A stretch of 62,376 bases of DNA, counting the filler, from Sluysia triapertura (taxonomy: Eukaryota), in assembly GCA_046118255.1 (NCBI GenBank). It is 5 parts of 5 records of this genome, joined end to end, with 100 filler letters (N's around TTAATTAATTAA, not from the genome) between each part and the next. Parts side by side here need not be neighbours in the genome. Positions count along the whole stretch, not along the records: positions 1 to 10,977 come from JBJNIA010190652.1; 4 more parts are not named here. The stretch is one strand, 5' to 3'. The notes under the pieces were generated by a model. It saw only the letters and a program-made list of their open reading frames with translations, was not told the DNA's origin and made no database searches. This document shows, one piece after another, positions 902 to 45,905 of this stretch. Within the stretch, counting starts at the first letter, position 1, and every line of letters starts with the position of its first letter. The position numbers and the translations under genes were made by a program.

Positions 902-992
902 TGTTAGACTTCGTAAAATGGACTGACCGGGGATCGAACCCGGGACCATCGTCTGCGCAGTCCGAATGCTTTACCACTGAGCTATCACCCCC
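902..992 (-). mobile_element. tRNA-derived SINE head (tRNA-Cys-like), copy 1
   Basis: Minus strand reads GGGGGTGATAGCTCAGTGGTAAAGCATTCGGACTGCGCAGACGATGGTCCCGGGTTCGATCCCCGG: A box (TAGCTCAGTGG) and B box (GGTTCGATCCC) present, but acceptor and anticodon stems do not pair. The tail CATTTTACGAAGTCTAACA is shared with the copy at 5982. Confidence 0.75.
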
Positions 993-1767: not shown

Positions 1768-4700
1768 AAATTCAAATATAATATAACTGTTCAATAAAAT
1801 ATACACTGTCATAAATTCAATTAGTAAATATAGTAAATTTACTAAATATACTGAAATTTAATTATGGTTTTAACTAATTTCAATTAAATATTTTAAATGT
1901 TGCTTTTTAAGATAATTTTGATCGAATATTATGCTCTTAAAATTTAATTTCACATTATTTCTGTCTAATGTTAATTTAAGATGATTTTATTTATCTAATC
2001 AATTGTGATAGTGAGTTTTAATGTTTTTAGATTTTGATTTCATATAGTTTCTGTACAATTTCAATTTAAGCTGAATTTTTTTGCTATATTGAGCGTTATT
2101 AAAGCATACATTCATAACTTTATCAGCATTCGAACCTAATTAGACATTATTTCATACAATTTTATTCACATATTTTATAGTATTTTGTGAATATAACTCA
2201 TGCGAAATGAAGTATGACTATATTTATTTGTAATATATCTGCTGTCTCAATTTCATTCTATTATATAACTATATTTATGTTAGACTTAATATTAATTCTC
2301 AGTGGAGTGCCGAGGTCGCGCCCCCAAACACCACCACCAATAGTCATAAAGTACTATTTATCTAGAAGCATTTTTGCGCCGCCATAACGCTGCGCTCCGA
2401 GACACTTAAACTTCCCTGACTTCATTTTTCTTTTATTTTTGTAACGATTTTTTTGCCATTTTCAAATTTCAAAGTTTTTTTCTTGAATTTATTTAGTAAA
2501 ACTTTAATTATCTCATTAAATATTTATTTATTTCATTGTTTGTTAGTACAAACAAGTAAGATGAATTTGTTGTTAATTAATTAATAATTTGTTGTTTCTT
2601 TAATTTAAAATAATCAAATAAAAACTTCTGTTTTATTTTTTGTTTAATTGTGTTTCATTTCATTAACAGTTGAATTAGTTATTATTTAAATAAATTTAAA
2701 ATGTGCATATTATTTAGACTTCTTTGCTGAAGATTTGTTGAAAGAAAAATCAATTTCTTTTTTTACATTTAATACTACATAATTGATACAATCGTTGTAA
2801 AATTAATATATGAATTTAAAATTAACCTCAGAAAAGTATGAGTGAAATAATTAACAATACTGAATGTTTTTTCTGCAAATACGATAATGTATCTATTATG
2901 AATAGTATTGTAGCAAATAAATAAAATATATGTATGACAAAAATTTACATTAATTATATTAATTACTTAAGTATGATAAGTTAATAAATATTATTACAGC
3001 GAGTAGACAATACGGATCAATGAAGGTAATATTGAAAACAAAAAGATATGAGGGTTTTGTTGCTATTTTTATTACTGAAAATTATAAATTCTTCTGTTCT
3101 TCTGTTCTTTGAATAGTATATATTTGCACATATGGTATTTAAAATCCTATGATTCGATAACACTTGAAATTTCGTTGATATTATTAATTAATTATGAATT
3201 TTATCTTTAATTGTTTGAATTTTATTTATTATTTTTTGTTTTCTGATCCTAATTAATTATTAAAATATTAAAAGAAAGCAGAAAACTTGAAATGATATAT
3301 TTGAATCAAAGAATTGATTTTATAAACATAGTCATTTAGTAAATTACATTAAATAATCAATAACTGAATTTTTTATTACAACCATTTTATCATTCACTTT
3401 GTTTTATTTTAATTATTTTAAATAATAATACACATTTTATTTTAACTATGTTTTGATTTATGACAAACCCAACTACAAATTAGCATTTAAAACAATTCCA
3501 TTTGATTATATTTTTTGTTAAAATTATCATTCTAAGTATTATAAGTTTTGTTTTTTGTAAATAATTGTAATTTATAGAGCAAAATCTTCATGAAATTGCT
3601 GCTAGTTAATATTGATAGTTATGTATCAATTATATATTGTATAATTGTTGTAAAGCTATTTTGAATTATTACTTTAAATAAAACTTATAAACGTTTAACT
3701 TAGTCTACGCTTACTAATGACTCCTATGTAATTCTTTAATAATAATAGTAATGTAAAGGTTGTATAAATGTATTATTCACTTTATTTATTATTATTATTT
3801 ATTTATTAAAGTATTTAAAAATGGTAAATTATTAAAAATTATTACAATTATTAAATTTAGATTAAGTTAAATTATTACAAAGAATTTATTTATTTGAATC
3901 AAACAAATAATTAACAAACTGATATAAATAAAGAGTAAAATTATCATTTATTTGATACTAATCGCGCTGATTTAGAGATAAATCACAATTTATCTTTTAT
4001 TTTCCCTAGGCAAATACGCATTTCCTCACAAATTTTTAATACTGGGGAAATGCTAAAAGTTATTTTCCTTCAATAAACCAAGTATCAATTATTCGTTCCT
4101 TCTGATTTTGTTACAGCTACAAGAACAAATTCCTTCTGAACCAGAGTTAAAATCCTGGATCCTTTCCAACGCTTAGCTCCTCGAAAGCACCAATGAGCTC
4201 TCTAAAGAAGTTTTACAGTATGTGCATCATTTTATTGTACCACAAGCAATAAAATTATTAACTTAAGATAAATAAATTTATTACAAATGTAAAATGTTAA
4301 AACTTTCAACGTGACTCTTACCCAATTTATAATGAAAATGAAATTCCCATATCATTTTCCAAACATACCTGTAAATTCATGCACGCTAAAAAATGGATCG
4401 ATTGCAAACTTTGGTTGGCAATAATGTGAACAATAAAGTAGATATTTGGGATTGGATTAAAAGTTATAAGATAAATTAAAAAAACTGTTAAAAATTGAAT
4501 GAAGAGTTATAAAATAACACCAAATATAATGAACCAGCACTATCCAAAACAGACTAAAACAGATGAAAACTGCTCTCAGTAGAGCCTTGAGCCAAAGTAA
4601 GCAGTTTAAAACACACTTGGATTAATCACAAGAAGTGTTTGTCAAAGTTAGGAGCGAATATATATATAACACTTTGAAATCATTTAAATATCATTTAAAA

Positions 4701-5539
4701 TCATAAAAAATTATTTTCGAAAAAAGAAAATTAGCTATTAAAAATAGAATAGAAGCTTCTATTGGCTGATGACTAGTATGTAAAGTAGCATCAGCTTTGT
4801 AAAATTCGCCATTTGTAATTCTTCATTATGAAAATATAACTGCCATTTTTGATTTTGCTGCATTGTTCTTTTGTAGTTGTTTGGAATTTCTTGGTGAATT
4901 ATCGTAATACATTCTACGATTGGGAAACATTCATCGAACAACAATTATTATTTTACTTACAAATTCTATGCATTGGTAAATTATATATTATTAAGATCAA
5001 TTTCAATTTTCGAAGTTAAAATTATAAAATTTTACTTAAAATAATAAAGACATTAAATTAAACGCTTTTTGAGCTTTAATCTTTAAAATACTGTTTTTTA
5101 TTATCTTTAGTATTTTTTAAATAATGTTATTATTTTTATCTCTATTTAATTATTGAAAGTTGTAGAATAAATTATTAAAAGATTTGAAAAAATTATTTAT
5201 TGTATCTAGTTGAGCATTTGTTAAGACCCTAATTAAGGATAAGAACAAATACTAATTTTAGTATTTAACAAGTACAGAACATAGAAAAGTTTATATTAAT
5301 TCGAATTTAAATTATTTTGAAATGGATGTTTAACAAGAAAATGATACTTAATGTGATTGCTTAGTTTATAATATGTAAAATAATTTTAATCGCAGGTTTA
5401 ATATTTTCAAACGATAGTAACGTCCACTAAACATGAGGATAAACAAGTCTTCATAAATTAGCATTATTGTAGAGGAAGAGACCTAAAGTGCCATTTAGAA
5501 TAATGATAGTATGATTGACTTTATAATATAATAATAATA

Positions 5540-5975
5540 TATTAATTTATATTGCGCTCTTATCTACTGCAAAGTAAGTACTCAAATGCGCTTAAAATAA
5601 ATCATTCATTATAATATTTCTGAAACAGAAAGAACTTTGCCTTTTTCGTAAATATTTCATAATCTTCCAGTAATTTGTATATTTTTGAAACATAAACGGT
5701 ACACAACCTATCATCTAGCTCTTATTATCACTGTGGATTCTGTATAGATTATTATTATGTCTCAATGAAGTATTCATCTTGGTTTCCAAATTTTTTATTA
5801 TTTCTAAGACATATTCAGGACTTCCGTAATGTAAGCGCATTTATAAATTATTGTCATGATTTTGAATTATATTCTTGCTTTTATTGGCAAGATAAGGTGT
5901 TACATATGATCTTCTTCCCACTTGGATATTAATTATAATTTGTTCACTTTTCTACATGAAATTGCGAATAAATTT
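5540..5975 (-). mobile_element. Repeat family A: 5'-truncated LINE-like 3' end
   Basis: Homologous to 14118-14495, 46198-46530 and (inverted) 50869-51112. Minus strand encodes LEDYEIFTKKAKFFLFQKYYNE*, which resembles CR1/L2-type ORF2 C-termini (inference). Confidence 0.6.
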
Positions 5976-5981
5976 GCGAAT

Positions 5982-6065
5982 GTGATAGCTCAGTGGTCAG
6001 AGCATCGAAGTGAGGTAAGAGAGCCCCAGTTCAAACTCCAGTAGTTCATTTAATGAAGTCTAACA
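5982..6065 (+). mobile_element. tRNA-derived SINE head, copy 2 (more degenerate)
   Basis: GTGATAGCTCAGTGGTCAGAGCAT...AGTTCAAACTCC followed by CATTTAATGAAGTCTAACA, matching the copy 1 tail. Confidence 0.7.
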
Positions 6066-7557
6066 TTATTTATAAAATAATTAATATAACTTATGTTAAT
6101 ATGAACTACATATAATATAATATTTATGTGCTTATCTTTAAGAATCACTTCAGTTCATTCTGAAACCCTAAATATAATAAATTGATAACATAATGATTTT
6201 AAAATTAAAAACACATATTTCTTCTACTTTACAAAGATTATGCCACATTTTTTCATCAAACAATTTTTATACAACTTTCATAACAATACCAAGATACTGA
6301 CAATAAACACTCCAAAAGAATCCATCATTAATTAATTACTTGTTCGATTGAGATTTAATAACAATATCTGAAAGTTACCATACTTAATTCGACTATTTTT
6401 ATTTTAGGATCATTATCTACTTTTAAGGTCGCAGATACAAGAATGATCAAAATGATATACCAAATAATGACAAACAACAATAAATTTGTATGAGATTAAT
6501 TTGATAAGTAGTAGATATTTCGAATCTGATGAAATATAATCAAATATGTTTTCTTCAATCATGAAATTATATCCATTAATGAAAAATTACTAATAATAGT
6601 ATACGTGATAACATATCTTTGTGGTTGTGTGTAACAATTGAACAAACAAAATATTCATTCAAAATAATGTGTAAATAAAAAAAGATAACAAAATTATATA
6701 AAATTAGAAAGGCATATTTAATATAATAATGAGTTTTTTTCTATTTAGTGCTAATAAAATTGATAAACGTAAAAGCAATATTTTGAATATTTTAGTGAAG
6801 TAGTTAGTGATAAACATGGTAATAAAGTTATATGAAGAATTTTGAGGTGTAATAGTTGATATTGAATAGAATTTTACAATTATTGGATATATTCGTTTAT
6901 TTGTTTATTTTTATTCTTCTGTACACTGGTGAACAAATTATTAGACTAAAACAGGAAGAATATGTTTCTCGGTGGTGATGGCGTTAAGCTGCTACTCTGA
7001 TCTGGAAACTCTGCAGGCATTAATCTCATAGAAAATCTGTGGGAGATTCTGCCTATAAAACAACCACCAGGACGGAACTTATTGAAACCCTGATAAAAGT
7101 ATGTCCCAAGTTCATCCGTGACATGTATTTAAAGATCAGGAAATTATTGAATAACAAAGTACTGATACAACAGTTTGTACATATTTGATTTGTAGTAAAT
7201 TGTGTTATCATTCTACATGAATACAATGTAGTAGTAAATAGTTTATTTCAGTATAAAATATTACAATTTGTGTTTTAAAATATTTTATCGACTGAATTAA
7301 TTTAATATTTAAGAAAAATGTAGAAAATATTTCACAAATATTGTTAAACTTATATTTCTTTATGAATTTTACTAAAAAATTGAAATTAACTCTTTTAAAA
7401 TCTATTGAAAAACTAAAATAATATCTAAAACTATTTATTTTTATAAAATCTAATTGCAACAAAATTTTATTTCTTAATTGTTTCATTATTTGCCGCATAT
7501 GCCACTCAGAGTATTCGTACATAATTCTAAAAAGACGTAATAATAAATAAAAATGAT

Positions 7558-7980
7558 TCAGGTTACTAAATTCAAGTTAAAACATATAATTATTACCATT
7601 TTACTTTTCATCATAGCATTGACTGGAATTCTAGAGAAATCTTGACCTGCAAAATCGTCAGAACAACAGATTGGGTGTCGTGCATAGAGCTCAGTTTCCA
7701 AAGTCGATAAAATAGATTTTATCCTGTGACAGTGGTCCACAAAGCAAGCTGGACACTCAGGAACATCTCGAAACTCACAAATTGTGTGATAGTATACACA
7801 ATCCTTGCCATACCTAATGCACTTTCCAGATTGAGCTGTTTCGTACAAACAAAGACCTGCCTTGTAATGTTTATGATTATAAAGAAACTTAGAATAGCCA
7901 GTTTCTAATCTTTCATTTGAATTATTTGTCTTCAATGATGTTACTTGATTTGTCATTACATAAGAATCTAGATCTACCAT
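7558..7980 (-). CDS. CCCH (TIS11-like) zinc-finger ORF, probably the 3' part of a longer decayed gene starting near 8450
   Basis: YKAGLC-x9-C-x6-C-x3-H (YKAGLCLYETAQSGKCIRYGKDCVYYH), similar to the YKTELC lead-in of TIS11 fingers. Further Cys/His cluster CPAC..DHCH. A paralogue lies at 29860-30400. Confidence 0.6.
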   Translation of the reverse strand: MVDLDSYVMTNQVTSLKTNNSNERLETGYSKFLYNHKHYKAGLCLYETAQSGKCIRYGKDCVYYHTICEFRDVPECPACFVDHCHRIKSILSTLETELYARHPICCSDDFAGQDFSRIPVNAMMKSKMVIIICFNLNLVT

Positions 7981-8615
7981 ATCAGGGATAACTAATTTAT
8001 GTATTTATAGAAATTTCTGTAATTTTATTTTTCTTTTCCAATTTATAATTCGAAGAAAAAGCATGCTTTAAATCAAATTGTTTATACTGAGATGGGAAAA
8101 TCGTTCAGTTAAAATGTTAGTACTTGTACTACCCTAACATAAAGTTTTTTCTTTTTAGAATTCAAAAATTTTATAATTTTTGGTGATACTTCTAGCAATT
8201 AATTTTTTCATTTGTAGTTATCTTTGGCTTAATAAAATTAATATTCAAGACACAATCGACATAGTCTTTAAAACATCTCTTATCTTTTATATACATAACT
8301 GTAGCAAAATTAACAACACGTTGGGTTTTGGAATTGTCTTTTTCATTAAAATTGAGCACTAACTTTCCATCAACATATTTGAATAAAATGTAAGATGAAA
8401 AACCAAATGATTTATTCATGACAATATAGTTATGAAATGATTATACTAATATAGAGCAACACCAGATTGCATATTTTTCAACACAAAGAATATTTACTTT
8501 TTAATTTTTGTGTAATCGTACTTCGTAAAATTAATACCGCTAAATATTAACTGTATTTTTTTGACCAACTATTGAGTTTTAGATTACTTTTTAATTTTTA
8601 ATTGTTGTCTTTGTT

Positions 8616-8684
8616 GATTGGACGTCCAATCCAAATAGACAAAACCAAAATGTAGAATTAATATTGATTGGACGTCCAATCAAT
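8616..8684. promoter_or_regulatory. Pair of palindromic CCAAT/GACGTC boxes, 50 bp apart
   Basis: GATTGGACGTCCAATC (8616-8631) and ATTGATTGGACGTCCAATCAAT (8663-8684), both perfect palindromes, upstream of the minus-strand ORFs. Confidence 0.6.
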
Positions 8685-10829
8685 TATTGTGTAAAATCAA
8701 ATAAAGCTACTAGCATTCATGCCTGCATGTGTAGATGTGGTTTTATCATTCTTTAGGTTAGTTACTAGGGTGTTGGAAATGCTGTACACAGTTAATGTGA
8801 TTAAAAACTACAAGGTTCAGTTGTTGTCTATGCTTTGAACAATAATAATAATAATAATAATAATTAAAATTAATAGCGCAAGTAATAATAATAATAATAC
8901 TGTGATAATAACATAATAATATAAAAGTAAAAACATAAATCTTTCTATATTTAATTCGCGTTCTTAACAAATAAATAAATAAATGAATACAAAAAAATGA
9001 ATTAAAAGGTGTAAATGTTTAAGTGTGAATCAAATGAGCATTTGAGATGCTTTGAGTCAGTTTTAGGATACATATTTGCAAATTTGAAGTGTAAATTGTG
9101 ATTCTAATGTTATTAAATAATGAATAAATGTTTTAAAAGAATTTTTACATATACTTTGATGTTTTTGAATGAAAGTAAAGTTTGTATGTTGGAAGGTTGT
9201 GACATTAAAATGTTTTAATGAATCTAAAAAAGGTAATTGTACGATGTTAACTAATGTAATTATGATTATAATGTTGTGAAATTATGAGTTAAAAATGTTA
9301 ATGAATTTTTTAATGTATCTTATTGATCTGAAAGTGAATGTAATCTTGATGTTAGAGGGTTATAAAATAGAAATGATTTGAGAAGGTTAGAATAATGTTT
9401 TAGTGGATGTAAAGGAGATAAAATATGAAAAAGGTTTTGATAGAAAAATAGTTAAAATGTTACGGTATGTGGTTTTATGTGCGATATATTTAATTAAATT
9501 TGTAATGTTTTGAATTAATTTTTTAAGTGTATGATTGATGATTTTCGATATCAAATACGATTTGATGTTATAAAAATAATAATAAAAGTAATAAGAATTT
9601 CGAAATGTTCTGAAAAGTAATTTTTTTGTACATAATTAAAATAAAATTTTAAAATATTAGGTTGGTCACCACATACAATTGCTGTATGCTTTGGATTTGA
9701 GTATTTTTATTTATTATTTTACATTTTCCATGACAATGTAAATGGCATTTATTTATACACTTTTGATTAATAGTTTCATAGTATCCTTGAAAAAGTGTTG
9801 AATTTTATCACAAAAATGGTCGTCTTTAGTCTAATAATTTGGCCACCATTGTAATTATTATAATATTATTATATAAATATGTTGGAAATAATAATATGAT
9901 AATTATAATGACAGCCGTGATGTAGCATGTTTACAGCTGTATAAGAAATCAGCATCAAAAAATAGAATAAATCCTGAAAAGAAAGTATACTTCAAAAACT
10001 TTATATAATTATAAATTATAACTTAACTAATTATCAATTTTAAATTAGTTATTATATGTATTCTATAATTATTATCATTATATTATTAATGAAAATTTTA
10101 CATGATAATATGAGGTAAGAAAAGATATCTTTTGTGTTTGCAGACGAAAATTAATGAAAAGGAAAATGTATCAAAAATAACAACAATGAAAATAATTATT
10201 ACAATGTGGCTATAATAATAATAACTGTGACAATGATAACGATAATAATATAATATGAAGTTCGACTGCTCAAAAATCGTGGCGACTAAGTGATGTATAC
10301 AAGAGTGGACAAGTAACAAAATTGCATAAAAATGTTAAAAAAACCAAATAATGATTTGGGACAGGATTTAGATTGAGATTAAAACAAGGGACATTTTATT
10401 TTTTTACTAATTAACATGGGAATCGATATAATGTGATAAATGTAACAATAGGCATTTTTGGTGTATCATCGTAAAATGCAAAAATAATGTTAGTATATTG
10501 GAAATCAAATTTTTTTAGTATTTTTAGGATTAGTAAAGGTTATTTTTTGAATGCAATGAGTTGCAACTTCAAAAACGATATATTTTAATAATTACTGTAT
10601 GGGCGTAGGGGTTTTGTTTTGGTCATAATTCTTAAATTTTAACATTCTTACTTCCTTTTTATCATTTAATAATTTAATATTATAAGACTCGTGCTTAAGG
10701 CACTTGACATATTTTAAACTAAAACTTTGAAAATACAAATCAATGTAAAACGTCGAAATTTTATTAATGAAATTTTTAAAAGTATCTACCATCAATTTAT
10801 TAATATTGTGATGTACGAACGTTATAGCT

Positions 10830-10945
10830 AAACACGATCCAGATTTTCCATTACAAATTCGAATTGTCCCATCAGCATTCCCGCAGACCATAAAACAAAA
10901 AGCTTGACTACTCGTGATAGAACACGGTGATTTGGATGAAACAAT
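10830..10945 (-). pseudogene. Isolated WD40-like repeat fragment
   Basis: FMVCGNADGTIRICNGKSGSCLA resembles the WD40 consensus sgs.DgtIriWd..tg.cl; single repeat next to a gap. Confidence 0.4.
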
Positions 10946-11077
10946 TTGATTTAATGATAAAAAACAATATTTAGAACNNNNNNNNNNNNNNNNNNNNNNN
11001 NNNNNNNNNNNNNNNNNNNNNTTAATTAATTAANNNNNNNNNNNNNNNNNNNNNNNNNNNNNNNNNNNNNNNNNNNN

Positions 11078-11109
<32 letters not shown>

Positions 11110-12184
11110 GTTCAGTAAATACATAATTTTGTTAATAGGTATCATAGTAAGTAATGAATAATAATAATAATAGTAATAATAATTTCATGAATCTGTACAA
11201 TAATAAATAATGATAAATATTGCTTCCGGCCTAAATATTCATATTTTATTAAATTTTGATTACATATAGTTTATATTCAATCTTATTTTAATATGATTTT
11301 TTTTCGATTAGAATGCTTTTGAATTTGATATTATATTATTATCTCAATCTTTAATTTAAGCTAATTTTGATCGAGAATAATGTTATTAACTTTTAATTGT
11401 ATACTAATTTTACTCAATCTCAATTTAATATAATTTTAACTCTAATATTGGAATAATCTTTATGTTCTTAAAATTTAATATTGTATTTTCTTTATAGAAT
11501 TTCATTTTATTTTAATCTAAAACAAAATGTTATTTGTTGTTAAATTTTGAATTTATACTAACTCTACTAAATCTCATTTTAAATTGATAAAAATCATTAT
11601 AATCTTAATGATAATGATTTTTGAAAAAAGAAACTTATTTTTTAAAAGAAAATTCCTTGCCAAAAATTAGAAAATAAGTTTCTAGGATGTTCTAAAGCAT
11701 TCTAGAATTCTACTCGTCTATGGTTGGCTATGGATTTGTTTAAAAACCCACAGCTAATTATAAAGAAACACAATTTTCAATTTACAATTTTACGATTTTA
11801 CAATATTACAATTTTAAAACATAATTATTTGCTTTGTTCCGCCATATTGTAATTGGAAATTTTATTCACCTTGGTTTATTTCAATCGATATTTTTGGTTA
11901 TTCGTTCCAGTTTTTTCATTCCATGAAAGAGTAAAGTTTTTCATTATTAAGATCATTTTGATTTGACAAATTGGTCCCACTCGTATTTCTGCAAGTTTCT
12001 CAGGCTTAAGTAGGTCATGTTACATATTTTTTTAAATGATTAAATAAGGACAATGTTTTGCATAATCGTTTCTGCTTTTAAAGTGTGTGCACAAAATTAT
12101 TTCAATAATATACCACCATTTTGTGAGAAAAATATTTGGATCAAATAAAATAAGTGAAAATATTATTAAGTCTAAAGTTAGAAG

Positions 12185-12979
12185 ATGGCAAATATTAATG
12201 ATTACGATGAGTTTGTAGCTGATAATATGTCAATCAACGATAGTGACGAAGATACTGATGTCGAAAAGAATATTGACCCTGATTTATTGAATGATACATG
12301 GACGTGGCAAAATACGCACTTTCAACCAAATTTTCATAATTATACTTGCCAGGCAAAACCAAATATTGATAATCAATCATGAGACCAACTAACTTACTTC
12401 GAATATTTTTTTGATAACGACTTGATGACTGCTATTGTAAACGAGACCAACAATTATCAACTTCAAAATCCAATTGGTGAACGTGAAAGAATGGTTAAAT
12501 TGGTTGATTTTTCAGAAACATAATGCTTACCGAGAAACTCATTCAGTTCAGCGACCGCTTATCCAAGACCAACCTCCAAGACTTAATGGAGACATTTTCA
12601 TAGTTTGAATTCAAGCAATGGCAGTAGAACTAATCGTAGACGTTGCCGCGTATGTAGTGACAGAGAAAGAGAGGCGAGAACAATTTATATGTGCGAAAGT
12701 TGTGAAAATGAAGTGCCTCTGCTTGTGTCTGATTGCTTTAGACAAACTATATTACATTCCACACTAGATTACACTTTGATAGAGAATATTAAATTTACCA
12801 ATTTTCATATTCTATGCTATTTTATTGAAAATTCATGAAAAATTATACATTTTAATTAATTTTGAAATTAAAACTAACGCAAGTGGCGCCAGCTTTTAAT
12901 TGCTTTTCTCACATATATTTCATATAATCTCTCAAATAAATTTATGTTCGCAAATATACGCTCACCGGCGGTTAAATGG
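12185..12979 (+). mobile_element. piggyBac-family element, internally deleted transposase plus right end
   Basis: Acidic N-terminus, then TYFEYFFDNDLMTAIVNETNNY. C-terminal cysteine-rich RRRCRVCS..TIYMCESCENEVPL..DCF. Ends CCGGCGGTTAAATGG|TTAA. Left TIR not found. Confidence 0.85.
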
Positions 12980-13189
12980 TTAATAAGAGTAATGTAAAAT
13001 TTAAAAATTAGGTTTAATTTTTTTCAGGACCAACCTTAATCATTAAAACTGTACAATTATGAGATAATTTAAATATATATAGAAAAAACAAGTCAGTAAA
13101 TCTACTAAGCAGCCAGTACCACAACAAGATACTGGCTACTGGAAAGTCAGAAATAACTCAGTACTGCGATAGCACTAAATGTAGTGTAA

Positions 13190-13592
13190 ATAACTTATAT
13201 CTGTGAAGCAAGAAACACGAAGACCTTTCTCTCTTTACGGCTGCTACAACGCTTTTATGCTTTATGGATAGCAAAAATCCAGAATTTGCTATCATGCATA
13301 AGAAACAATCTTGATGTACATTTTTGAAAATTCTTGCAGATAATTTATGTGAAAATGAGCCAAATTCAAGTTGTGATCTAATTTCCAAAAGATGCAATAT
13401 TTGCCAGGTTAGCAAAGCAAAAGTAGAATAAGTTGGAATAAATGTGGTAATTTTGTTTGTGTAAAGAAAGGAAATCCTTCCTTATAAAAATTGCTTATCA
13501 TAAAAATGAGTAGCAATACTCTATTAAAATTAGGTTGGATTACTCTGGTCCTATTTATGTGTTTATATAATTTTTTATGATGTTAGTGAGGG
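13190..13592 (+). mobile_element. Second piggyBac 3' fragment
   Basis: Frameshifted TRRP..CYNAFMLY..KNPEF..FLKILADNL..KRCNIC..KCGNFVC, ending GAGGG|TTAA. Confidence 0.7.
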
Positions 13593-14117
13593 TTAAACCA
13601 TTTTTTAATTATAAATTATTTTTTAAATCTAAATTTCATTTCGCAAACATCATAAAGGTTGCAGTTGCTTAGTTAAATAAAATATATAACTTTTACAATT
13701 ATTTTTTTTAAATTCTTGATTATAAATTTGTCTGAAATGTTTTTACAAGAACGTAAAAATAGCATTCATTGATATTTAATGCGTTTTCATTAAATTTGAA
13801 TGGTCATTAAATGAGAATATGATAAACTTTAAACTATAAATGAATTTCATAATCAGTAATCGCTTTTTGAATGCAGTTTACGATTAATGTTAATTTATAT
13901 GAAACTCGTTGATTTATGAATTTTAAACCCTCAGTCAGCGTGATCGTAGCGCTATTTTCTGTTTATGGGCCAGCTGATTTGCAACTGATTTTTTACTTTT
14001 GATAAAATTCAGTTTGACCAGAAACAAAATTCTTTAGAATATACAGCATTTTTTCCCAATTAAAAACACAAAATCTGAATGAAATTTCAGGTGGTCTTTT
14101 ATTCGGTACTGATACGA

Positions 14118-14495
14118 CGCTTAAAATAAATTAATTATTATAATATTTCGGAAACAGAAAGAACTTTACCCTTTTCTTAAATGTTTCATAATCTTCCAAT
14201 AATTTAATATTCTCTGTTTGTATATTTTTGAAACAAGCGTTATATAACCTATTACAGCTTATTATCACTGTATAAATTATTACATCTTAATGACATTCAT
14301 TTTGGTTTCCGAATTTTTTATTATTTCAAATTGTAAATTAATGGCAGCAAATGTAATTCTTTAAGATAAGATATTAAATGAAATCCTCTTAGTTTTGCTG
14401 ATTAATTCATTATTAATTGTTATTATTGCACTTCTCTGTATGGAATTACATACAATATGCCATTGTTTATTTATTAATAAATTTTCGAATATTTA
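14118..14495 (-). repeat. Repeat family A copy
   Basis: GCTTAAAATAA...GAAACAGAAAGAACTTT...CATAATCTTCCA shared with 5590-5670. Confidence 0.7.
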
Positions 14496-14620
14496 ATATT
14501 TTCTTTAATTGATATTTATGCCCTTTAACAATACATTTAATATTTTCTTGCATGTTTATTTATAAACATGTTTAAATATAAAATAAATAAATTTTTAAAA
14601 TAAATATATTTTTGATTTAG

Positions 14621-19000: not shown

Positions 19001-20593
19001 TAAATGATAAATTTAATTCATAAATTTAATCAATACTAAAAATTTGTAAGGTATAAAACTAAATAGAGTTTATAATACAATTTACTGGAAATAATTAATA
19101 AATAAAGTTCGTATAACATCTACAATCCAATTCTAATAATAATGAAATTAAATAATATTAAGAGTAAAACTTATTTATAATAGGCATAAAAGAATTTAGT
19201 ATTATTATTTTAACAATAATAACGTATACTTAATATTTATTAATGCAATTAAATTTTACACAATTTGTTATTAAAGAAATTTTAGTGTATTTTAATAACT
19301 TTACTAAAATAGAATTCCAATATATAATATGAACTAACGATTTTGTTTTCATATGTTTTAGTTTGTCTGTTGTAAATTGGTTTTTGTCAATAATTTCTTT
19401 TAATCGAAAATTACTATAGTCTTCAAATAATCAATGATTTCTTTTAATTAAAAATTATAAAAGTCTCCAAATAGAATTACAAAATTACAATATGTAAAGA
19501 CTTTATGATGAGTTTAACGTCACTGCTAAGAATTTCCAAAATCTTTTAAATATTTCAAACTTGTAAAAAATACTGTGTGAGATTTACTGCACTTTTAGTT
19601 AATATTTATATCAAAGTGGTGAACTCATTCACTTTAATCTACAATTTTGACTGATAAAATAAATAATCGTACTTATAATAAAAATAGATTGATAAACAGT
19701 AATAAATAATAATACATAATACAATAATAAATAATAATGTTTTTTGAGTTATAACGTTATAAAACATTTAGACATTCTTATTATTTATTTAATATTTAAA
19801 TATTATTTTATTATAATAGTATAAAACATACTTAAAAAACAAATATAAATTAAATATTTAAAGTTAAATATATGTGTAAAATTTAATATAAAAAAATTCA
19901 AATGAAATATTTATTATTTCTTTGTTTTATCAAATTAAAATATAATTTTGTTTTGTTGAGAGAGAAATAAATATTAAGATGGCTGTCTAAATTTCATAGA
20001 ATAGGGAAATTTAAACTGAAAAAATTTGGACAATTTAATTTTTTAAGCAATTCTATGAATTTAAGTTAATTTTTATAAGTTTAAAGTCCTTATTATAAAA
20101 AGAATGACCTAAAATATACTTTAACTTTCCTAGACCGTAAAAAGGCTAGGTTAAAATCATCTTAAAATTATAAGTGTTAAGCAACTAAGTCCATTAAGCA
20201 CCTGCTAAACTAATTATATTACTTTGAATTTTTTGTATTGAATTAATTAAGTTTTTCATAACGAATATATATATAGTGAATAATTGTTAATTTTTATTAT
20301 TAAGCATTAATTTCTTTAAACTTTTGACCATAAATAGGCTGATTTAATTTCTAAATTGTTGATATAATTTATCAGACCGTAACAAGCTAACTTAACGTTT
20401 ATTCTTTACATTATTTTATAAAAAAGTCGAGATTTTTGTAAGTTACGAATTGTAAATTATATAAATATAACGAATATAATAAGTAATTATCTTGTAATAC
20501 TTTATACGATTTATAGCATAATGTTTATTTACGCTTTACGTTATAACTGCATCGAGCTCTCGTAAACATCATAACCACCTTTAGAATTTATTG

Positions 20594-20660
20594 TTAAAAT
20601 CCTTAGTAGAACGCCTTCATTGAGATTTAAGTCGTGTCTATTAGGCGAACTCATCTCCAG
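20594..20660 (+). other. Conserved hairpin motif M1, copy 1
   Basis: TTAAAAT CC(T)TAGTAGA ACG...CGT G TCTATTAGG CGAA CTCAT CTCCAG. Confidence 0.65.
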
Positions 20661-21220
20661 AGTCATTTTGTAAGTGTAGGTTAAGATTTTATAGATAAAA
20701 TACTTGCAATACTATAATAATTTTAATAACTAATGATAAGAAAATGTAAATAATATTTGTAAATAATAAGACCTTATAAAGCATTGTAAATAATAAAAGT
20801 TTTATAAACAATTTGTATAAAAGTTACGTAAATAAGCAAAATTTGTAAAATAATAAAAAATTATTAAAAAACTATTTATTTTAAAATTTTAGTTGTTAAA
20901 TTAATTTTATAATTAAAGGAAGTTGTCTATTTATTGTTTACATTATTCATCTAGTTTTTAGGAAGTTATAATCATTTATAATTGTTTATTTTTCAATATT
21001 TATCTAGTTTTAATAAAGGAAGTTATAATTATTTACGTCATTTTTATTTATTATTTATATAAATTTGGAAAACGACTAATATTTATAAAATATACAAAGG
21101 AAACAACTGAAGGAAATAAGCACGCGTATATAAGGTAAGGTATTGAGAAAGAAATACACAATTAATTAAAGGAGTTTTAGTTAAAAATCTAGGTTCGTGT
21201 ATTAAAGATTGGCTTATTGA

Positions 21221-23243: not shown

Positions 23244-24928
23244 ACTCTTGTCTCAACTCCAAGAAATACTTTTTAAAATATTTAAAAAAGTTCTAGTGTT
23301 TTTTTAAAACTTGTGTGTTTTTAACTACAACCGTGAGCTATTTATATGTATTTTGCTATCTTTTACTACGTGTAAATAAATATATTTAATTAAATAAAAT
23401 TAAAGATAAATTATTTTCAGACTTTAAAATGTAGACATTACTTTTAGAAATAATTAAAATAATCTAATTAATTTATTTTATTTCATGTTTGTAACTTAAA
23501 TAATCTAATTATTTCAAATATTAAAAAGATAATTATTATTTTCAAATATTAATTATTTTCGACTTTGGTTTTTTATAATATGCTTTTATGATAATAAATT
23601 AATTATTTTACGAAAATAACTTATTAATTAATTATTTACAAATTACAAATGTTTATATTCATTACAACTTTTAATACAAATGTTTACTTTTAATATCTAC
23701 ATTTGTAAAAGGAAACAAATGGAAACGTTAATTAACTAATGGATATCCATAATTAAAAAATTTAATCTAGAGGAGTTAAATGAAAATCTATTCAAATTGA
23801 TGGAATTCTTAATGAAACTTAAATTAAATTAATGGATTCAAAAAGTATATAAATACTCAAATAAATAAAACAATCTCAATAAACAAGTAATAATAATCGG
23901 TATTAAGTAGTAAGTAGAAAGTTCTTTGATCAAGTAATTGCGACATTAAATCTGAGCATTCATTTACATTTTCTGAAATCACAGAAGTATAATATATTCT
24001 TAAATTACATTATATTCAATAATTCAAGTAGTAAGTTTATATTATATAGGTTTTAATATCTTACTCTTGTGTTGTGTTGTAAATCAGACAGAGTATCATA
24101 AAGAGTTGTGTATTTCAAATATGTTTTTAAATTTCAATAGTTTAATGTTCAAAAATTATTTGTAGATATTTAATGCAAAAAAAACAATATTACAACAATG
24201 ATGCGTAATATTGTTAATTTATAAATTTTAATGCAAATCTTTGGATTTTATTTTAAATTTTAATAATTTTTTAATAATTTTTAATTTTAATATAATAATT
24301 TTAATAAATTTAATACAATAATTTTAAATTCTTTTAATGTAGAGGAGCACATTTGCTTTAATTGTTTTAATTTGTATTGTTTTAATGACCGCAAGGTCAT
24401 TCATTTTGTATATACAGACGATCATTTTTGTCATAAAAACACAATAAGCGATAAATCAATATTTGTAAAAATCTTTACTTATTTCAAGGAAGAGGAAACA
24501 CTTTCGTAGTTATTCTAATTTCCAGACAGATAATCCAATTTTGTATTTTAGTTTTTTATCATTAAGTCCTTTTACAGCATTTATAACTATGTATTTATAA
24601 ATTCTACTTAAATTCTAAACATCATCTCGCTTCTGTTTCAAAGTAGCTTATTAAAATCAATTTTTTAAAATCTATTACTTAAAGATTATTCTAAAAAAGG
24701 ATAATCCTANNNNNNNNNNNNNNNNNNNNNNNNNNNNNNNNNNNNNNNNNNNNTTAATTAATTAANNNNNNNNNNNNNNNNNNNNNNNNNNNNNNNNNNN
24801 NNNNNNNNNAATATAAATTAAAGAAAATTAATTTTATTTAGTTGTGCGATATAAGATAAACTGAAGTTAATTTATCACATAGGATAGCTAATTAATTTGC
24901 TTAGTTTTTTAAGTTAAGTTTTAAATTC

Positions 24929-24994
24929 TAAAACCTAGTAATACGTCTCCAAGTTTGGTATAAGACGTATATACTAGGCGAATTGACCTTGCAG
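24929..24994 (+). other. Conserved hairpin motif M1, copy 4
   Basis: TAAAA CCTAGTA ATACGTCT...AGACGTAT A TACTAGG CGAA TTGAC CTTGCAG; ATGs follow at 25010 and 25018. Confidence 0.75.
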
Positions 24995-25017
24995 ATAATT
25001 TGTTAATAAATGTTTTT

Positions 25018-25990
25018 ATGGAATTACCCGTAACTATAGTAATAGAAGATATCATATAATTAATTAAGTTAAATGACCCGACAATATCAGAAGTAAAGTT
25101 ACATCTTTGTAATAGATACCCAGAATTATTAATTGATTACGGTTAGATGACCCCGAAGAAATTATACAAAGCAGTAATTAGGAAAAGCGGTAATTATACA
25201 AAAATCCCGAAACACCAATTAATGATGCAGTTAAAGAAAAAATAGATCGAAAATTTAGGATTCTCCACATTCCTTTTTGAGACAATTAATGGATGATTAC
25301 ATACAAATAATCAAAAATAATACAGGAATTGACATTGACAATGATACGGGAATTAATATCGAAAACGATAAAATTACTGAGGAATCTGACTATATAATGA
25401 ATCTTATAAATATAATGAATCTGATAAAGAAATAAATACGATAAAAAGAAGGTGAAAATAAGATAATATCCGCACCTAATCCAATTGTTAGAAATACTAT
25501 TGATTTAACGAAAATAGATTATGAAAATGAAGATGAAAATATTGAATTAAATACTAAATAAGTAATTTATGCATTATTATCTCATAAATTCACCAATTTT
25601 AATAATTACAAGAAGTTATTACCCAAAATAAAAGACTATAGAGTTTCAATAAGTAAGTTGATAAAACATTTTGAAGATAAACATAAGGATAAAGATGTTG
25701 ATGACTTTATAGGTACTGTACAATATAAGTTAATAATAAATAAGCAAATTAGTAGAGGAATAGATAAGGAAAAACTTAAAATAATCCTGGCTTATATTAT
25801 ATTTCAATGCAATAAAGAGAGAATGATTACAAAAAACAAAATAGTAAAGTTATACATTTTGTTAATAAGAAAACTAAATTAGGGCTTGATAAACAAGGAA
25901 AATTGAGAAACATAATAAAAAAAGGATCAGAAAACAGAGAAGTCGCCTAACCTAATTACGCAACTATTCGGTAATAACGGTAATATATTA
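25018..25990 (+). pseudogene. Decayed ORF of unknown function upstream of the glycoprotein
   Basis: A-rich coding-like sequence from ATG 25018 with several stops and frameshifts (includes ORF 25658-25882); no gag or pol motif recognised. Confidence 0.45.
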
Positions 25991-26027
25991 AGTACAGCAG
26001 TACCAAGAATAGGTAATTCAACAAATA

Positions 26028-27960
26028 ATGTTATTTGTCATAATATTATTGGCCATGTTCGGTATAAATAGGACTAATGCAATAAAGGTTTTTAATTGCA
26101 GCCAACCTCAAATAGGCAGAAAATTTTCCTTAGTGGACATGCAAGATTATGCCGAATACAAATAAAATATACTAAAATAATGAAGGTTTATCAAGAGGAA
26201 AACTTAGTGAAAACATTAATAAGAGTGTATGTTAAAACGATCAGTAGCAATCATAGCATAATTGTCAAATGTTCTCGAATTATTTAAAATATAGAGAGGC
26301 ATTCAAAACGGGATAAATAAGTCTAAACAAAGGAGATAAGTTAAAAATAGAGAATAACGAGAAATAATTTATAACATTAGAACCGCTGGTAAGGTATTAA
26401 TAGACGGAACTTGCGAACAAGGAACGGTAGAATATGAGAAAAATTTTACCATAATGTTGTCGCCAAGAAACATATGTTGTAAGTTTAAAATCATTTAATG
26501 TAAGTTTTGACATGGAAAATGGAAGAATGATGTCACGATCATACTGTAAAAGTGATCACACTAGCTATAATACAAGAGAATCAATATTAATTTGTGAGTT
26601 AGACAAATTTCTGTGCCCATTAATATTCTTGAAACAAATAAAATTTAACCTAGTATCCGAATTTACATATCAGGATAAAGACGAATTTCCAATAGAAGGG
26701 ATAAATAAAAATCAAATAAACAAAAAAATATAGATCAATTACAAAGAAAAAGGTCGGATAAAATAGAAACACCATCAATTTAATAGCTAGTAGAGGAGAA
26801 GATGGTTTGATATTTATCTTAAAAGTGAAACAACAATTCGTTGTGGAGAAGAAATAACCGAAACAAATTATCATGGAATCTATCTGTCGGAAAAACAATA
26901 TTATTGTGAGAAATTTGTAAAACTAAATACCTATTTTAACAATAAAATCGATTTTTACTACTATTTAGGCTTAATATCCATGGAAAAGATTTACCAAATT
27001 ATGGTTACACGCGAATTTCAACTAAACGAAAAATTTTACGAACAAAACTAGCAGTGGCAATCGCTAATCCAGATTTAGTTGCACCATTAGAGGCAAGAGT
27101 TTTCGGTCGATTAATGGGGAAAGTGTTATATACCTATAAATGTAAAAAAATAGAAGTGCAATTAACATCAACTACTGATTCCATAAATGAATTACCTATA
27201 TTATATGGTAAAGTAGAAACATATATAGAACCGATAACCAGAGTAATTTTTCCGAATAACGAAGTTAAACCAAAACTGATGTATTGTTCATATGTCATGC
27301 AACCAGAATATAGAATAGATGATAATTTATGGATATCATGACCACATAGAAGTCAAGTAAAAATTCCAGAAATTAAATGTCTATCCAAATTAAAAGGAAA
27401 AAAAGTTTCTAGCTACAAAAACATACCTACTTCTGGCATTTATACCAACGATGACATTCAAGCATCCTGGCGGGAAATATTATTCCCGATAAAAAGATCG
27501 AAAATATTAACAGAGATTCTATTTAAAGCATCTGTTGAAAAGAACGAATAAGTAAATTTCGAATTGCTATTGGGACCATATCATTTTTAAATGGCCGTAC
27601 AGAATACGCTAAATCAAATATGGGGGAAATTTTTAATATTGTGACAAGCATTTTCCGGATTGATAGAAATTTGTACAATAATTTAGTAATTGCTAGATAA
27701 TTTCTCCAAAGTTTTCAGTAATCTAAATTTATAAAATTTCAGGTTAATAATCGGATATTTTCCATTTTTAGCGAAAGATCTTTTACATCATCATGCAAAT
27801 ACGCAAATAAATGCATTAAGAAAAGAAAAACAACAAACAGAAAAGAGACAGCAAATAAATATAGCTTTACATTAATTACAAAATAACTAAAACGAGGAAA
27901 TTGTAGAAAATCAAAAAATTAAATTATATCCTGACATTCCAACGTCACCCTCACATGTAG
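26028..27960 (+). pseudogene. Chuvirus/Monjiviricetes-like fusion glycoprotein (env-like), frameshifted
   Basis: Colinear motifs: signal peptide MLFVIILLAMFG, VFNCSQP..FSLVDMQD, DGTCEQG, CGEEITETNYHGIYL, TYFNNKIDF, ANPDLVA..GKVLYTYKCKKIEV..NELPI..YIEPITRVI, CSYVMQPEYRI..W, SGIYTNDDI..ILFP, then IWGKFLI..FSGLI transmembrane region. Confidence 0.88.
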
Positions 27961-28336
27961 TGTATATGATAATATACGCAAAAATTAATTACAATGGCTC
28001 AAAAAAACACAGGGGCAGAATAAATATCAAATATCAGAATGAATGACAGTTTAGTGAGGTTATTTTAATGTCCTGACACCAGTTTAGTGGAATTATGTTT
28101 ACATTTGTTAAAATTACATTTGAATTAGTAAAATATATTATTGAATTTGGTCCTCTCTGATAGAAAAAAACTTCGAAATTTGACTACTAAATGTATATAT
28201 TTTTTGTTATTATTATTACTATATTCACTCAATATAAAGTATTTGAAATTATTACAATGAAGAAAGAACTCGTGAACAAATATAAGATTTTTGTAAGAAA
28301 TGAGTTAGAGAATAAAACGAATTATTAAAAATTATC

Positions 28337-28390
28337 GTGAGTTCACCAACGTACTGGACTTACCAGCGAGGATCAGCCGTTGGATTTTAA
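28337..28390 (-). other. Conserved hairpin motif M1, copy 5
   Basis: Reverse complement: TTAAAAT CCAACG GCTG...CAGT A CGTTGG TGAA CTCAC. Confidence 0.7.
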
Positions 28391-29859
28391 TGAAAGACAA
28401 GGATACTTAATTTTAAACTGTGAAAATTTTACTTAACTCCTTAATTCTGGAGGTAAATTCTTAAAAATTTAGTTGTCAAATTTAACAAATTGAATTATAA
28501 TGTTACGTCGATTCCGTTATATGGAATCGGGAAAAAATATATTTTACTAACTAGAATTAACTTCTAGTACATGAAAACTACTAAATGATCAAGTTTAAGA
28601 TTTTAAAACTATAATGATAAAGTTTGAACAAAAATCGAAGACTTTATTAACAATATAAATTAGCATGTACAATAAACTAGAGGATATTTAATAATAATAA
28701 ATATGGATTTTGCGTGCAACTAATTTTATCTAATTAGTTTCTAAAAATGCATCAAGATTTTTTGTAAATATTTTACTTTAGATCTTTATAAGATGTCAAT
28801 TAATGATGATGATTTTGCGTGATCCTAATATAAACGAATTTAATGATTTGCTCTGGATCTCGAATGATAATTGATTTTAAAAACAAAATTTTTTTGTAAC
28901 TGGATCTCGAACAAAGTAAATGAATACTTGTAGTAAAATTTGTAAGAAAAATTTTTTGTGCTTTGTTACATTTTTACTGTGATATTTATAATTGTTTTAA
29001 TCTAACCTTGGCCAGATTAAAATTCATTAATTTATAATAATTAAAATTCGTATTTAGGATCACGTAAAAATTTTAAATAACTAAAATAATTTTAATAATT
29101 AAAAAATTTTAAATAATTAAAATATAAATATACTTTTTTATAAATTTCCAAAAGTAAATAAATTAACAATTTTTAACAATTGTGAATTAAAAAATCAATA
29201 ATAATGAATAATGCTGTGAAAATCAAAGTATAATAGTCATTACACACATAATAGTTACATTAGCTACACACGTAGTAGTTATATTAGTCATTACAATAAT
29301 ATTGGATGATCATATTTAAGTTAATATTTAATAAAATGTTTTTTATAGGACATTCTTTACTTTCATTTCTATTGCTATTTGTAAGCATATTTTATAAACT
29401 AACTTAAATATATTTTATTGTTTATTGTGTAATATACTTATAAGTTATCAAGGTTCTGTAATAAAATCTTGTTTTGTGTTGAAGATTTATTGATATTAAT
29501 ACTGTGGTAATAATGTTATGTCATAAATTTTATTAAATACAAATTTAAAGTTGTTACTTATAGACAATTTTATTGTCATAATTAATTTATTTAGGCTTAA
29601 TAACATTCGAAAGTTTTGCAAACTTATAATGTAATCATAATTAACTATATCAATATTAACTTTATTAATTACAAAACAAACACCTAATTGATTTATTTTA
29701 TAAAACTTTTTGATTTTAATATTTAATTTTTGATCTGGCTTATTCAATTTCAGACCATACCTCGATGTGACTAAAATTGAGATTCTAAAAAAGATTTAAA
29801 AATATAAATATATAATTCGATTTATATAGAAATGAGTTAAATCAAAATTTAGAATTATT

Positions 29860-30400
29860 TTTAAGTTCCCCTTGTTTCTCGAGTCTAATGATGTTGAATT
29901 CACACTTAATAATAAAGTACTGATATTACCATGATGATCACTGAGATTCAATGTTAAACCAAACAGATCCATGATTTCAAAAGCTTCATGACCTTATATA
30001 CAATTTCAGCCATATCAAGAAAATTCATCATTCTGTATTCTTCCATATAAGCATAAGCCATGAGTGTAATAATTGTCTTGATTGACATAAAGTTGTAACA
30101 TTTTACGAGATATGCTGCTACTTTAGTAACATTTCAAGGGGCCTGCCCTTGCTTTTTCTTTTGACTTGTTCTTTATTAATGATATAGTTTTATTTGTGAT
30201 CACGTACGAGTCGACATGGATAGAGACATCTACACATTTATTTATCTTCATCACAATTTAAATAGAAGCACCAACATGGTTTGAATCAAATTGTTTAACT
30301 TGAGATACATGAAATAGTTCAGTCGAATTTCTTATATTAACATGTTTTACACCTTGTTTATCTACTAATTTTACATACAATTTGAAGGTAAAGAGTTAAT
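29860..30400 (-). pseudogene. Decayed paralogue of the CCCH ORF at 7558-7980
   Basis: KQFDSNH..VDSYVITNKTISL..YTHGLCLYGRIQNDEFS*YG*NCI*GH versus KQFDLKH..LDSYVMTNQVTSL..YKAGLCLYETAQSGKCIRYGKDCVYYH. Confidence 0.75.
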
Positions 30401-30785
30401 TTTAATAAGTTTCGCATATTTTGATTTTAAAATTAGTTCTTTAACGAATTCTAATATTTTAAATTATAATTCATCGAAATGTACGATTAACGCTAATTTT
30501 AACGAAATATCATCCAAAAATTCATGTTTAGGTAGCATGGTTTCCATAAATAATTATTTTATACGAAAATAGATTTAAAAATTGATATAAGTTCTTAAAA
30601 CAATAATTCAGATTCGATAAAATTAAAACATAAATTAAATTGATTCGCTTTATCACCGTGAAATTATAAATTTCTTTATACAACAGCGATAAAAATGATA
30701 CTCTAAATATTCTGCTGAAGAAATTATAGGACAACGATGAAATGTTAATGTGTTAATTACTGACGCAGACTAGTTATAGTATGAT

Positions 30786-30957
30786 GATTGGACGTGATTG
30801 GATAGCTAATCAGGTAATAAATATAAAAAATATTATTTTATTTTTGCACACAACTTTGTACACATTAAATGAAAATAAGTCTGTCCATGATTAGTCGTCC
30901 AATTAAATGAAACAAAATATAATAGCAGAAAGACATTTAATTGGACGTCCAATCAAT
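30786..30957. promoter_or_regulatory. CCAAT/GACGTC box cluster between divergent decayed ORFs
   Basis: GATTGGACGTGATTGG (30786), GATTAGTCGTCCAAT (30889) and ATTGGACGTCCAATCAAT (30940). The last two are 50 bp apart, as at 8616/8666. Confidence 0.6.
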
Positions 30958-36348: not shown

Positions 36349-36409
36349 CTGGAGGTTAGTTCGCCTGATTGGATGCGATTAGATAGATACGTTCTAACCA
36401 GGATTTTAA
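36349..36409 (-). other. Conserved hairpin motif M1, copy 6
   Basis: Reverse complement: TTAAAAT CCTGGTT...AATCAGG CGAA CTAAC CTCCAG; flanks are homologous to copy 1. Confidence 0.65.
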
Positions 36410-36836
36410 TAATCTTAACTTAGCAATGAAGTTTATCTACGGTGATTCAATGTTCCAAAGAATTCGTATAAAATCTATGAACAAATATAAACGAAACAAT
36501 TAAAGTGTATGAACTTAAAATAACAAAGACAATATTATCTAAACAAAAGTTTTTTGATTAATTCACAATTTAAGCCAACCAGTTGCGATCAGACAATATT
36601 TTAAATGTTAAGTCAGCTTGTTACGGTCTGACAAATCAGTTACAGATTTTAAAAGTTGAATCAGCCAGTTACGGTCTCATATAAGATTTTAATTTATATC
36701 CAACAATTAACTTATGATATACCAAAATTGTCTACAGATTTAATCAAGTAAATGAATAAAAAGAAATCGAATATAATATTAATAATGATTTTAAAACCTT
36801 AAGAGTAAATCTTAGGTGTGAGAAATCAATGTATTT

Positions 36837-38483: not shown

Positions 38484-38536
38484 GTGAGTTCATCAACGTA
38501 CTGGGCTAACAAGTTAGGGACAGCCGTTGGATTATG
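38484..38536 (-). other. Conserved hairpin motif M1, copy 7
   Basis: Reverse complement: CATAAT CCAACG GCTG...CAGT A CGTTGA TGAA CTCAC; flanks are homologous to copy 5. Confidence 0.65.

Positions 38537-45716: not shown

Positions 45717-45905
<189 letters not shown>

Follow-up and report, generated by a model that had tools for sequence, protein, structure and literature searches.

We analysed a 62,376-nucleotide stretch of the Sluysia triapertura genome (NCBI GenBank assembly GCA_046118255.1), referred to as the window, which joins five parts of five records. The gaps at 10978-11077, 24710-24809, 39407-39506 and 50769-50868 hold an artificial TTAATTAATTAA spacer between runs of N, and the joins do not mean adjacency. 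At positions 7227-9673 lies E1, a 2447-bp TGT…ACA insert within the relic of a Tc1 transposon, flanked on each side by TACAA and carrying a minus-strand gene with a CCCH finger. E1 is probably the solo long terminal repeat (LTR) of a large Gypsy-type element that carried an antisense accessory gene in its U3 region, and similarly built elements (E2 to E5) lie elsewhere in the window.

Structure of the E1 insertion and its gene

The features of the insertion are listed with position, strand and, in brackets, the basis of the assignment.

6922-9853, plus: host Tc1/mariner relic split by E1, with terminal inverted repeats (TIRs) at 6922-6950 and 9825-9853 (TIRs, relic alignment)
7222-7226, unstranded: left copy of the target-site duplication (TSD), TACAA, 5 bp (flanks, empty site, run contigs)
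7227-9673, plus: E1, probable solo LTR, U3 to U5 on the plus strand in its presumed orientation (ends, TSD, empty site)
7227-7234, plus: left terminus TGTAGTAG, a short imperfect inverted repeat and putative att site (end comparison)
7561-8004, minus: open 3' part of the cargo gene, 148 codons (open reading frame, ORF)
7768-7902, minus: CCCH finger region, C-x9-C-x6-C-x3-H (Pfam zf-CCCH_UNK; PDB 5elh_A)
8005-8440, minus: broken 5' part of the cargo gene with several stops and frame changes, homologous to the sister element at 29503 (comparison with E3)
8614-8681, unstranded: two palindromic CCAAT pairs 50 bp apart, a putative bidirectional NF-Y-type promoter (palindrome search)
8838-8985, plus: AAT-rich tract with three overlapping AATAAA at its end (8970, 8974, 8978), a putative polyadenylation region
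9000-9660, plus: arm rich in G/T and poor in C, weakly repetitive within itself at an offset of 164 bp, a putative U5
9660-9673, plus: right terminus GGTTGGTCACCACA, with a motif in common with the end at 61773 (end comparison)
9674-9678, unstranded: right TSD copy, TACAA (flanks, empty site)

The insertion and its TSD are real, because the TSD itself, a second Tc1 relic with one copy of the site and contigs of the DNA run X1 all agree. The second relic, at about 1290-1790 (weak Pfam DDE_3 match, E 0.03), has the empty form of the site, and the E1 flanks align to it without a break; the host relic ends in 29-nt TIR arms that are 90% complementary. In run X1, 40 contigs depart from the window at 7227 and carry on as Tc1 sequence, and several joints, e.g., 7210>9716, bypass the insert; this is the only DNA run with the stretch and may be the window's own source, and so does not count as independent support. 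The direct repeat flanking E1 is actually 7 nt long (ATACAAT), and we parse it as a 5-bp TSD because three sister elements also start with TGT and two end with ACA. The final letters of E1 at 9673 are GTCACCACA; its terminal complementarity is 5/8, 7/14 and 20/40 over increasing lengths, and its termini read TGTAG and TGTGG, i.e., TGTNR at both ends. These ends and the TSD show an insertion of the integrase type, in support of the original prediction, which had named a retroviral-type integrase signature; the clean 2447-bp insertion into Tc1 and the short imperfect inverted termini that it described are borne out as well. Its statement that transposase, reverse transcriptase (RT) and LTR pair are lacking also holds: no LTR-type RT, protease or integrase was found in Pfam scans of 7 and 122 ORFs or in a motif scan, no transposase was found in the window by Pfam and motif scans, and there is no internal LTR pair within E1.

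The ORF at 7561-8004 matches the Pfam family zf-CCCH_UNK (PF25427) at E 3.4e-6 with 27.3 bits, which confirms the CCCH ORF noted earlier, though under the gathering cut-off of 31.1. The best PDB match of the finger is Unkempt (5elh_A, E 4e-4), with ligand spacing identical to that of Unkempt finger 3. Compared with the Unkempt CCCH fingers (PDB 5ELH; Pfam PF25427), the E1 finger has the same C-x9-C-x6-C-x3-H spacing and flanking residues, whereas the E1 protein has a single finger and Unkempt a tandem set, its score lies below the Pfam cut-off, and the protein in which it lies gave no other relatives. The gene reaches upstream to about 8440 and is disrupted there by stops and frame changes. 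No full-length relative of the ORF was found: the longer proteins yielded 51 candidates and those of similar length 3, none of which proved to be a relative, 1.84 billion representatives gave no match at E ≤ 0.001, and none of four pattern matches in viral contigs was confirmed. Atlas matches were CCCH clusters with scores <0.9, which we take as a lead only, and NCBIfam gave a weak match, far under its cut-off and taken as chance, for one of 13 queries. Some run X1 contigs over the gene are 15-21% different (37-49 differences in 230-290 bases) and others near-identical, so the gene family is multi-copy and old.

The layout of E1 is polar: the minus-strand gene, the two CCAAT palindromes, the AATAAA cluster and the G/T-rich arm follow one another from left to right. 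Both central CCAAT palindromes and a strand-skewed G-rich arm had been predicted, and both exceed chance. The 14-nt CCAAT palindrome has four matches with ≤2 mismatches, all in E1 and the 29503 sister, where 0.14 are expected, and 0 of 100 shuffles reached this count; the promoter-doublet pattern had no matches in metagenomes. The arm at 9001-9660 has 119 G against 24 C, a skew of 0.66, while the maximum in 200 whole-window shuffles (600-bp) was 0.40. The summed contig depth of run X1 is 3,000-14,500 over the arm against mostly 200-660 over the left 1.5 kb (10-30x), a measure that is not a copy number and gives a hint that the arm is more widely shared than the left part of E1; 8858-8988 is without coverage, repeats being skipped.

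Sister elements in the window

Four other loci, all oriented on the plus strand, are built like E1.

29503-30960, plus: E3, a colinear diverged sister with the left end, the same minus-strand gene and the CCAAT doublet at the same offset
36837-38033, plus: E4, a 1197-bp TGT…ACA insert with a 4/5 TSD, an unrelated minus-strand gene and a G-rich right arm
56838-58560, plus: E5, a candidate with uncertain ends, a minus-strand gene ending in a nucleosome-assembly (NAP) domain and a G-rich right arm (starts at the break in a non-LTR retrotransposon relic)
59482-61773, plus: E2, 2292 bp, TGT…ACA, with a C-rich left arm, an unrelated minus-strand gene, a CCAAT doublet, a hairpin and a G-rich right arm

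E1 and E3 are colinear. Matching blocks lie at offsets 685-747/653-715, 781-883/718-821 and 1389-1459/1386-1456, and the global alignment scores 522, whereas 50 shuffles reached at most 407 and 92 window controls at most 465. The two genes match by tblastn at E 3e-8, their frame scores 108 where the five other frames score 23-59, and 22 of 34 identical residues are encoded by different codons. Differences over 101 aligned codons number 50, 40 and 64 at positions 1, 2 and 3, in a protein-based alignment that itself favours an excess at position 3. Judged from sequence, this pattern points to past selection on the gene shared by E1 and E3. E3 goes on rightwards beyond 30960; no right end was found in the sequence up to the gap at 32307.

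The other elements carry genes unrelated to that of E1 (tblastn). E4 is a clean insertion with TSD copies TATTT and TAATT (4/5 match), and its ORF has leucine-rich-repeat (LRR)-like Atlas leads <0.9, with low recognition and no Pfam support. The NAP domain of E5 is above the Pfam cut-off (E 6.5e-12). E2 has no TSD (flanks TTATC and CAAGA), and the repeat around it could not be matched, so that no empty site is available; intact ends with unlike flanks are as expected from recombination between the LTRs of two insertions. Its CCAAT doublet is related to that of E1, and a near-perfect hairpin (60534-60597, z -5.72) lies just downstream of the doublet. The original prediction of related ends with different or diverged cargo therefore holds in part: similarly built elements with different genes do occur, but the one at 29503 carries the same gene, and of the TGT…ACA pairs at 36837/38033 and 59482/61773 the first has a 4/5 TSD and the second none. 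A possible further left end, TGTGTCTTCAACC, lies in 48549-49700, followed by a 112-codon minus-strand ORF (49329-49667), and may mark a sixth such element.

Polarity is the same in all five elements: the left part of each has a minus-strand coding signal (z -4.3, -1.9, -4.5, -3.8 and -2.6), and all four elements with such a right part have a right-hand G-rich arm. Single-window peaks aside, strong G-skew arms in the window are at 8901-9701, 37701-38101, 58201-58601 and 61001-61901, with a C-rich arm at 59401-59801. The coding signal comes from a frameshift-tolerant stop-avoidance test of 10 regions on both strands, in which the shuffles as good out of 150 were 0 for E1, 8 for E3, 0 for E4, 0 for E2 and 2 for E5; the regions were picked after seeing the ORFs, which makes these values optimistic. 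No coding signal came from any G-rich arm in this test, and the right part of E3 had a marginal one on the plus strand (6/150 shuffles as good). A period-3 test was dropped, as an intron control scored z 3.07 and an envelope (env) gene relic 0.74. Beyond the last approximately 30 nt, the right part of E1 has no homology to those of its sisters.

Another old family of repeats, marked by recurring TTACGGTCT motifs, is found at 20150-20720 (minus), 36290-36836 and 38034-39400 (plus); E4 has inserted into it, and E3 probably has too. A link to M1 cassettes, as had been suggested, was not shown, and if M1 denotes these TTACGGTCT-motif repeats, which is a guess, they would be insertion targets only. 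At 24900-27900 (plus) a decayed ORF (weak KilA-N match, E 0.054) is followed directly by a broken mononegavirus-type fusion glycoprotein gene, the env relic at 26-28 kb (Pfam Monjiviricetes_fusion, E 4.9e-12); there is no pol between the two or behind them, and relatives of the env-like ORF were found in 0 of 139 candidates. DNA downstream of this relic (28196-29233) recurs at 38350-39400. The non-LTR retrotransposon relic at 54700-56835 (plus), with an RT fragment (RVT_1, E 0.0027) and an upstream Cys-protease-like motif seen by eye, is cut off where E5 begins.

Host and origin of E1

Two exons in the window (39755-39893 and 45740-45880, plus) have as best match thioredoxin glutathione reductase (TGR), a glutaredoxin fused to thioredoxin reductase (TrxR): the first runs across the glutaredoxin junction, and for the second, TGR entries rank higher than TrxR of the mammalian type. 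The matched TGR entries in the PDB presumably derive from parasitic flatworms. The GC content of the window is about 25%, and two planarians have 24.1% and 29.5% (PMC13238120; here and below, we cite from the parts of each paper that were available). From the TGR-type exons and the GC content, a triclad (planarian) host is likely.

In such a host, E1 would descend from a large Ty3/Gypsy-type retrotransposon, Burro-like or of a similar planarian family, whose integrase presumably put the element into the Tc1 relic with a 5-bp duplication of the target. The two LTRs may then have recombined with each other, deleting the internal region and leaving one LTR between an intact TSD. On the plus strand this LTR, with U3/R/U5 borders that we infer, would consist of U3, a putative promoter (the two CCAAT palindromes), the AATAAA cluster and a G/T-rich U5, elements whose order is plain and whose functions are predicted. 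On the opposite strand, U3 would have held an accessory gene with a length of about 280 codons, whose coding history is preserved; the gene faces away from the CCAAT promoter and was therefore probably driven antisense by this promoter. The CCCH finger of its product resembles that of the host's Unkempt and most likely bound RNA. Related LTR families of this genome would carry other genes in the same slot, and the E1 gene is now broken.

Much of this agrees with what is known of animal Ty3/Gypsy (Metaviridae) LTRs, which have TG…CA inverted repeats of approximately 7 bp, AATAAA with a GT-rich stretch behind it, a more conserved R/U5 and frequent antisense transcription (PMC3601003); solo LTRs retain the TSD, with a 4-6-bp TSD and a TGT start as a rule of thumb (PMC8969392). 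E1 shares the TG…CA ends with an imperfect inverted repeat of about 7 bp, the 5-bp TSD, the polar layout, the lack of internal genes and, as a weak signal, AATAAA followed by a GT-rich stretch. It differs in its length of 2.4 kb, against mean Gypsy LTR lengths of 174-695 bp in six training sets (PMC3601003, PMC8969392), and, unlike usual Gypsy solo LTRs, it holds a protein gene with a selection signature and has approximately 1 kb of sequence downstream of the promoter.

The giant Burro elements of dugesiid planarians, likely the same host group, have internal regions of up to 25 kb and a total of >30 kb (PMC6431247), which implies LTRs of a few kb, and the length of E1 is of the same order. 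Numerous domains have been captured by Burro elements, which also have an env of the mononegavirus type (PMC6431247): capture of regulatory domains would be a common habit, and this window too has a mononegavirus-type env relic. In contrast, the extra domains of Burro belong to the internal polyprotein or to an accessory ORF lying upstream, and not to the LTR (PMC6431247). The env relic here, unlike that of Burro, is not embedded in a gag-pol polyprotein. Burro LTRs are said to be AC-rich at the 5' and GT-rich at the 3' side and bidirectionally transcribed, a pattern that E2 would fit fully and E1 in part, and which we take as a lead only.

Genes borne by an LTR or driven antisense from it are known from mouse mammary tumour virus (MMTV), with sag in U3, and from human T-cell leukaemia virus 1 (HTLV-1), with HBZ antisense from the LTR. 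E1 resembles them in having a gene inside the LTR or driven antisense from its promoter; however, these are vertebrate retroviruses with one fixed gene, whereas here several LTR-like families have unrelated genes in one slot. In the literature searched, the primary Burro description excepted, we found no description of gene-bearing planarian LTRs or of a slot that several LTR-like families fill with different genes, and the available parts of PMC11410931, PMC8532177, PMC8797187, PMC6884822, PMC13465017 and PMC5408684 do not describe planarian LTR structure.

Several observations weigh against a solo LTR. No copy was seen beside a primer-binding site (PBS), polypurine tract (PPT) or gag-pol, and among the 6 of 1091 loose ends listed for run X1 none is at 9673. 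A 1-kb U5 and a gene within U3 are unusual, and AATAAA occurs 11 times on the plus strand of E1, which makes it a weak signal, though the order of AATAAA and then a GT-rich stretch is present. The right part of E1 aligns to those of 0 of 4 sisters above shuffles, though a U5 should be conserved. The CCAAT doublet is absent from E4, and a downstream hairpin of the E2 type is absent from E1 (z +0.84) and weaker in E3 (z -1.34). Over about 14 nt the two ends of E2 resemble each other, which a short TIR would explain as well. Finally, the G-rich arm of E1 reads in places like a decayed Cys-rich ORF, which would make a two-gene cassette; the stop-avoidance test does not support a coding signal there (z -0.75), nor a decayed LRR-like gene suggested by eye.

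The strongest rival, although unlikely, is that E1 and its relatives are non-autonomous cut-and-paste cassettes in the style of Pack elements, with captured gene cargo under its own promoter, moved in trans by an integrase-like DDE transposase (Ginger/TDD/IS481-like) that reads the short TGTGGTG-CCAACC ends. Related ends do enclose different genes, the two ends of E2 carry one and the same motif (8/8, then CAACC), its C-rich and G-rich arms mirror each other, and the known groups offer likenesses in the TGTNR ends of Ginger1 and Ginger2 and the 5-bp TSDs of TDD (PMC2836005) and in the gene fragments carried by GingerRoot (PMC6839031). The TGTNR termini of E1 do not discriminate, as they are common to Gypsy LTRs. 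The known groups have TIRs of 40-300 bp and animal or plant TSDs of 4 or 6 bp, whereas E1 has neither TIR nor transposase. TIRs measure 44-270 bp in Ginger1 among the rows listed and 45-297 bp in Ginger2/TDD (PMC2836005), and 100-150 bp in GingerRoot (PMC6839031), against 5/8 in E1. Ginger1 is recognised by TIRs of 40-270 bp and a 4-bp CCGG or CCGT TSD, and animal Ginger TSDs are 4 bp with a sequence preference, where E1 has 20/40 terminal identity in AT-rich DNA and TACAA; for Ginger2/TDD, E1 lacks the TIR and its TSD length fits TDD only; GingerRoot further has a 6-bp TSD and mostly TA ends (PMC6839031). The polar layout, the lack of a TSD at E2 and the lack of a transposase in the window also speak against cassettes. 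We prefer the solo LTR because long TIRs are lacking, the layout is polar and in LTR order, and the likely host is known for multi-kb LTRs. Of the two options in the original prediction, the very large gene-bearing solo LTR thus fits better and the non-autonomous cassette family less well, and neither is proven.

It is quite improbable that the elements are LTR-only mobile units, i.e., single-LTR-like linear DNAs with both att ends that are copied and integrated by the enzymes of a helper retroelement, which would make them exchangeable accessory-gene segments and not passive recombination leftovers. The window has four to five units in 62 kb, each with a coding history and none joined to an internal region, and the relic at 25-28 kb, with an ORF and a mononegavirus-type fusion gene and no pol, argues that helper-dependent elements exist here. 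We know of no way of priming an LTR-only unit without a PBS or PPT. High ratios of solo to full-length LTRs are normal (PMC8969392, PMC5408684), and long elements would be hidden by the short contigs of the assembly.

Least probable of all is a composite origin, in which nested or truncated insertions, or a join made in assembly, merely resemble one unit: the 10-30x depth of the G-rich arm over the left part, the stretch at 8858-8988 left uncovered as repeats were skipped and the sharing of only the left part by E3 would suit it, but depth does not measure copy number, all 2447 bp lie between matching TG…CA ends and a single TSD at an independently fixed empty site, and E2 and E4 have the same order of parts.

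Other features and implications

The remaining features of the window lie apart from these elements. A tRNA-like sequence at 919-991 (minus; ARAGORN, Rfam), the single match of the Rfam scan, and a similar stretch at about 5980-6050 are probably the heads of tRNA-derived short interspersed elements. A Cys-rich zinc-finger end at 12590-12980 (zf-Tnp_2, E 1e-4) suggests a piggyBac-like relic, and an exon at 52239-52649 (plus) is similar to a receptor kinase C-terminus (PK_Tyr_Ser-Thr, E 0.005).

LTRs are normally non-coding. Solo LTRs as such are commonplace, and a few retroviruses are known to carry genes in their LTRs. A bolder extension, which we regard as rather unlikely, is that in planarian LTR-like units a single slot, next to a bidirectional CCAAT promoter, serves as a cassette in which captured regulatory genes are exchanged, among them genes for an Unkempt-type RNA-binding finger and for a nucleosome-assembly domain; as self-contained transcription units on their own, the LTR-like units might integrate as single-LTR segments via a helper retroelement and be, in effect, a segmented accessory genome. 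An RNA-binding finger and a histone chaperone would be plausible tools against host silencing, and a Burro-borne anti-apoptotic domain has been reported to aid regeneration (cited in PMC13465017). Were gene-bearing LTRs already part of the Burro description, the finding would confirm them for another species. Should the LTRs of several planarian families indeed each contain a selected gene, annotations of planarian repeats and genes would miscount such LTRs, the lineage would have a second route of host-gene capture, and every solo LTR would spread a promoter together with a gene.

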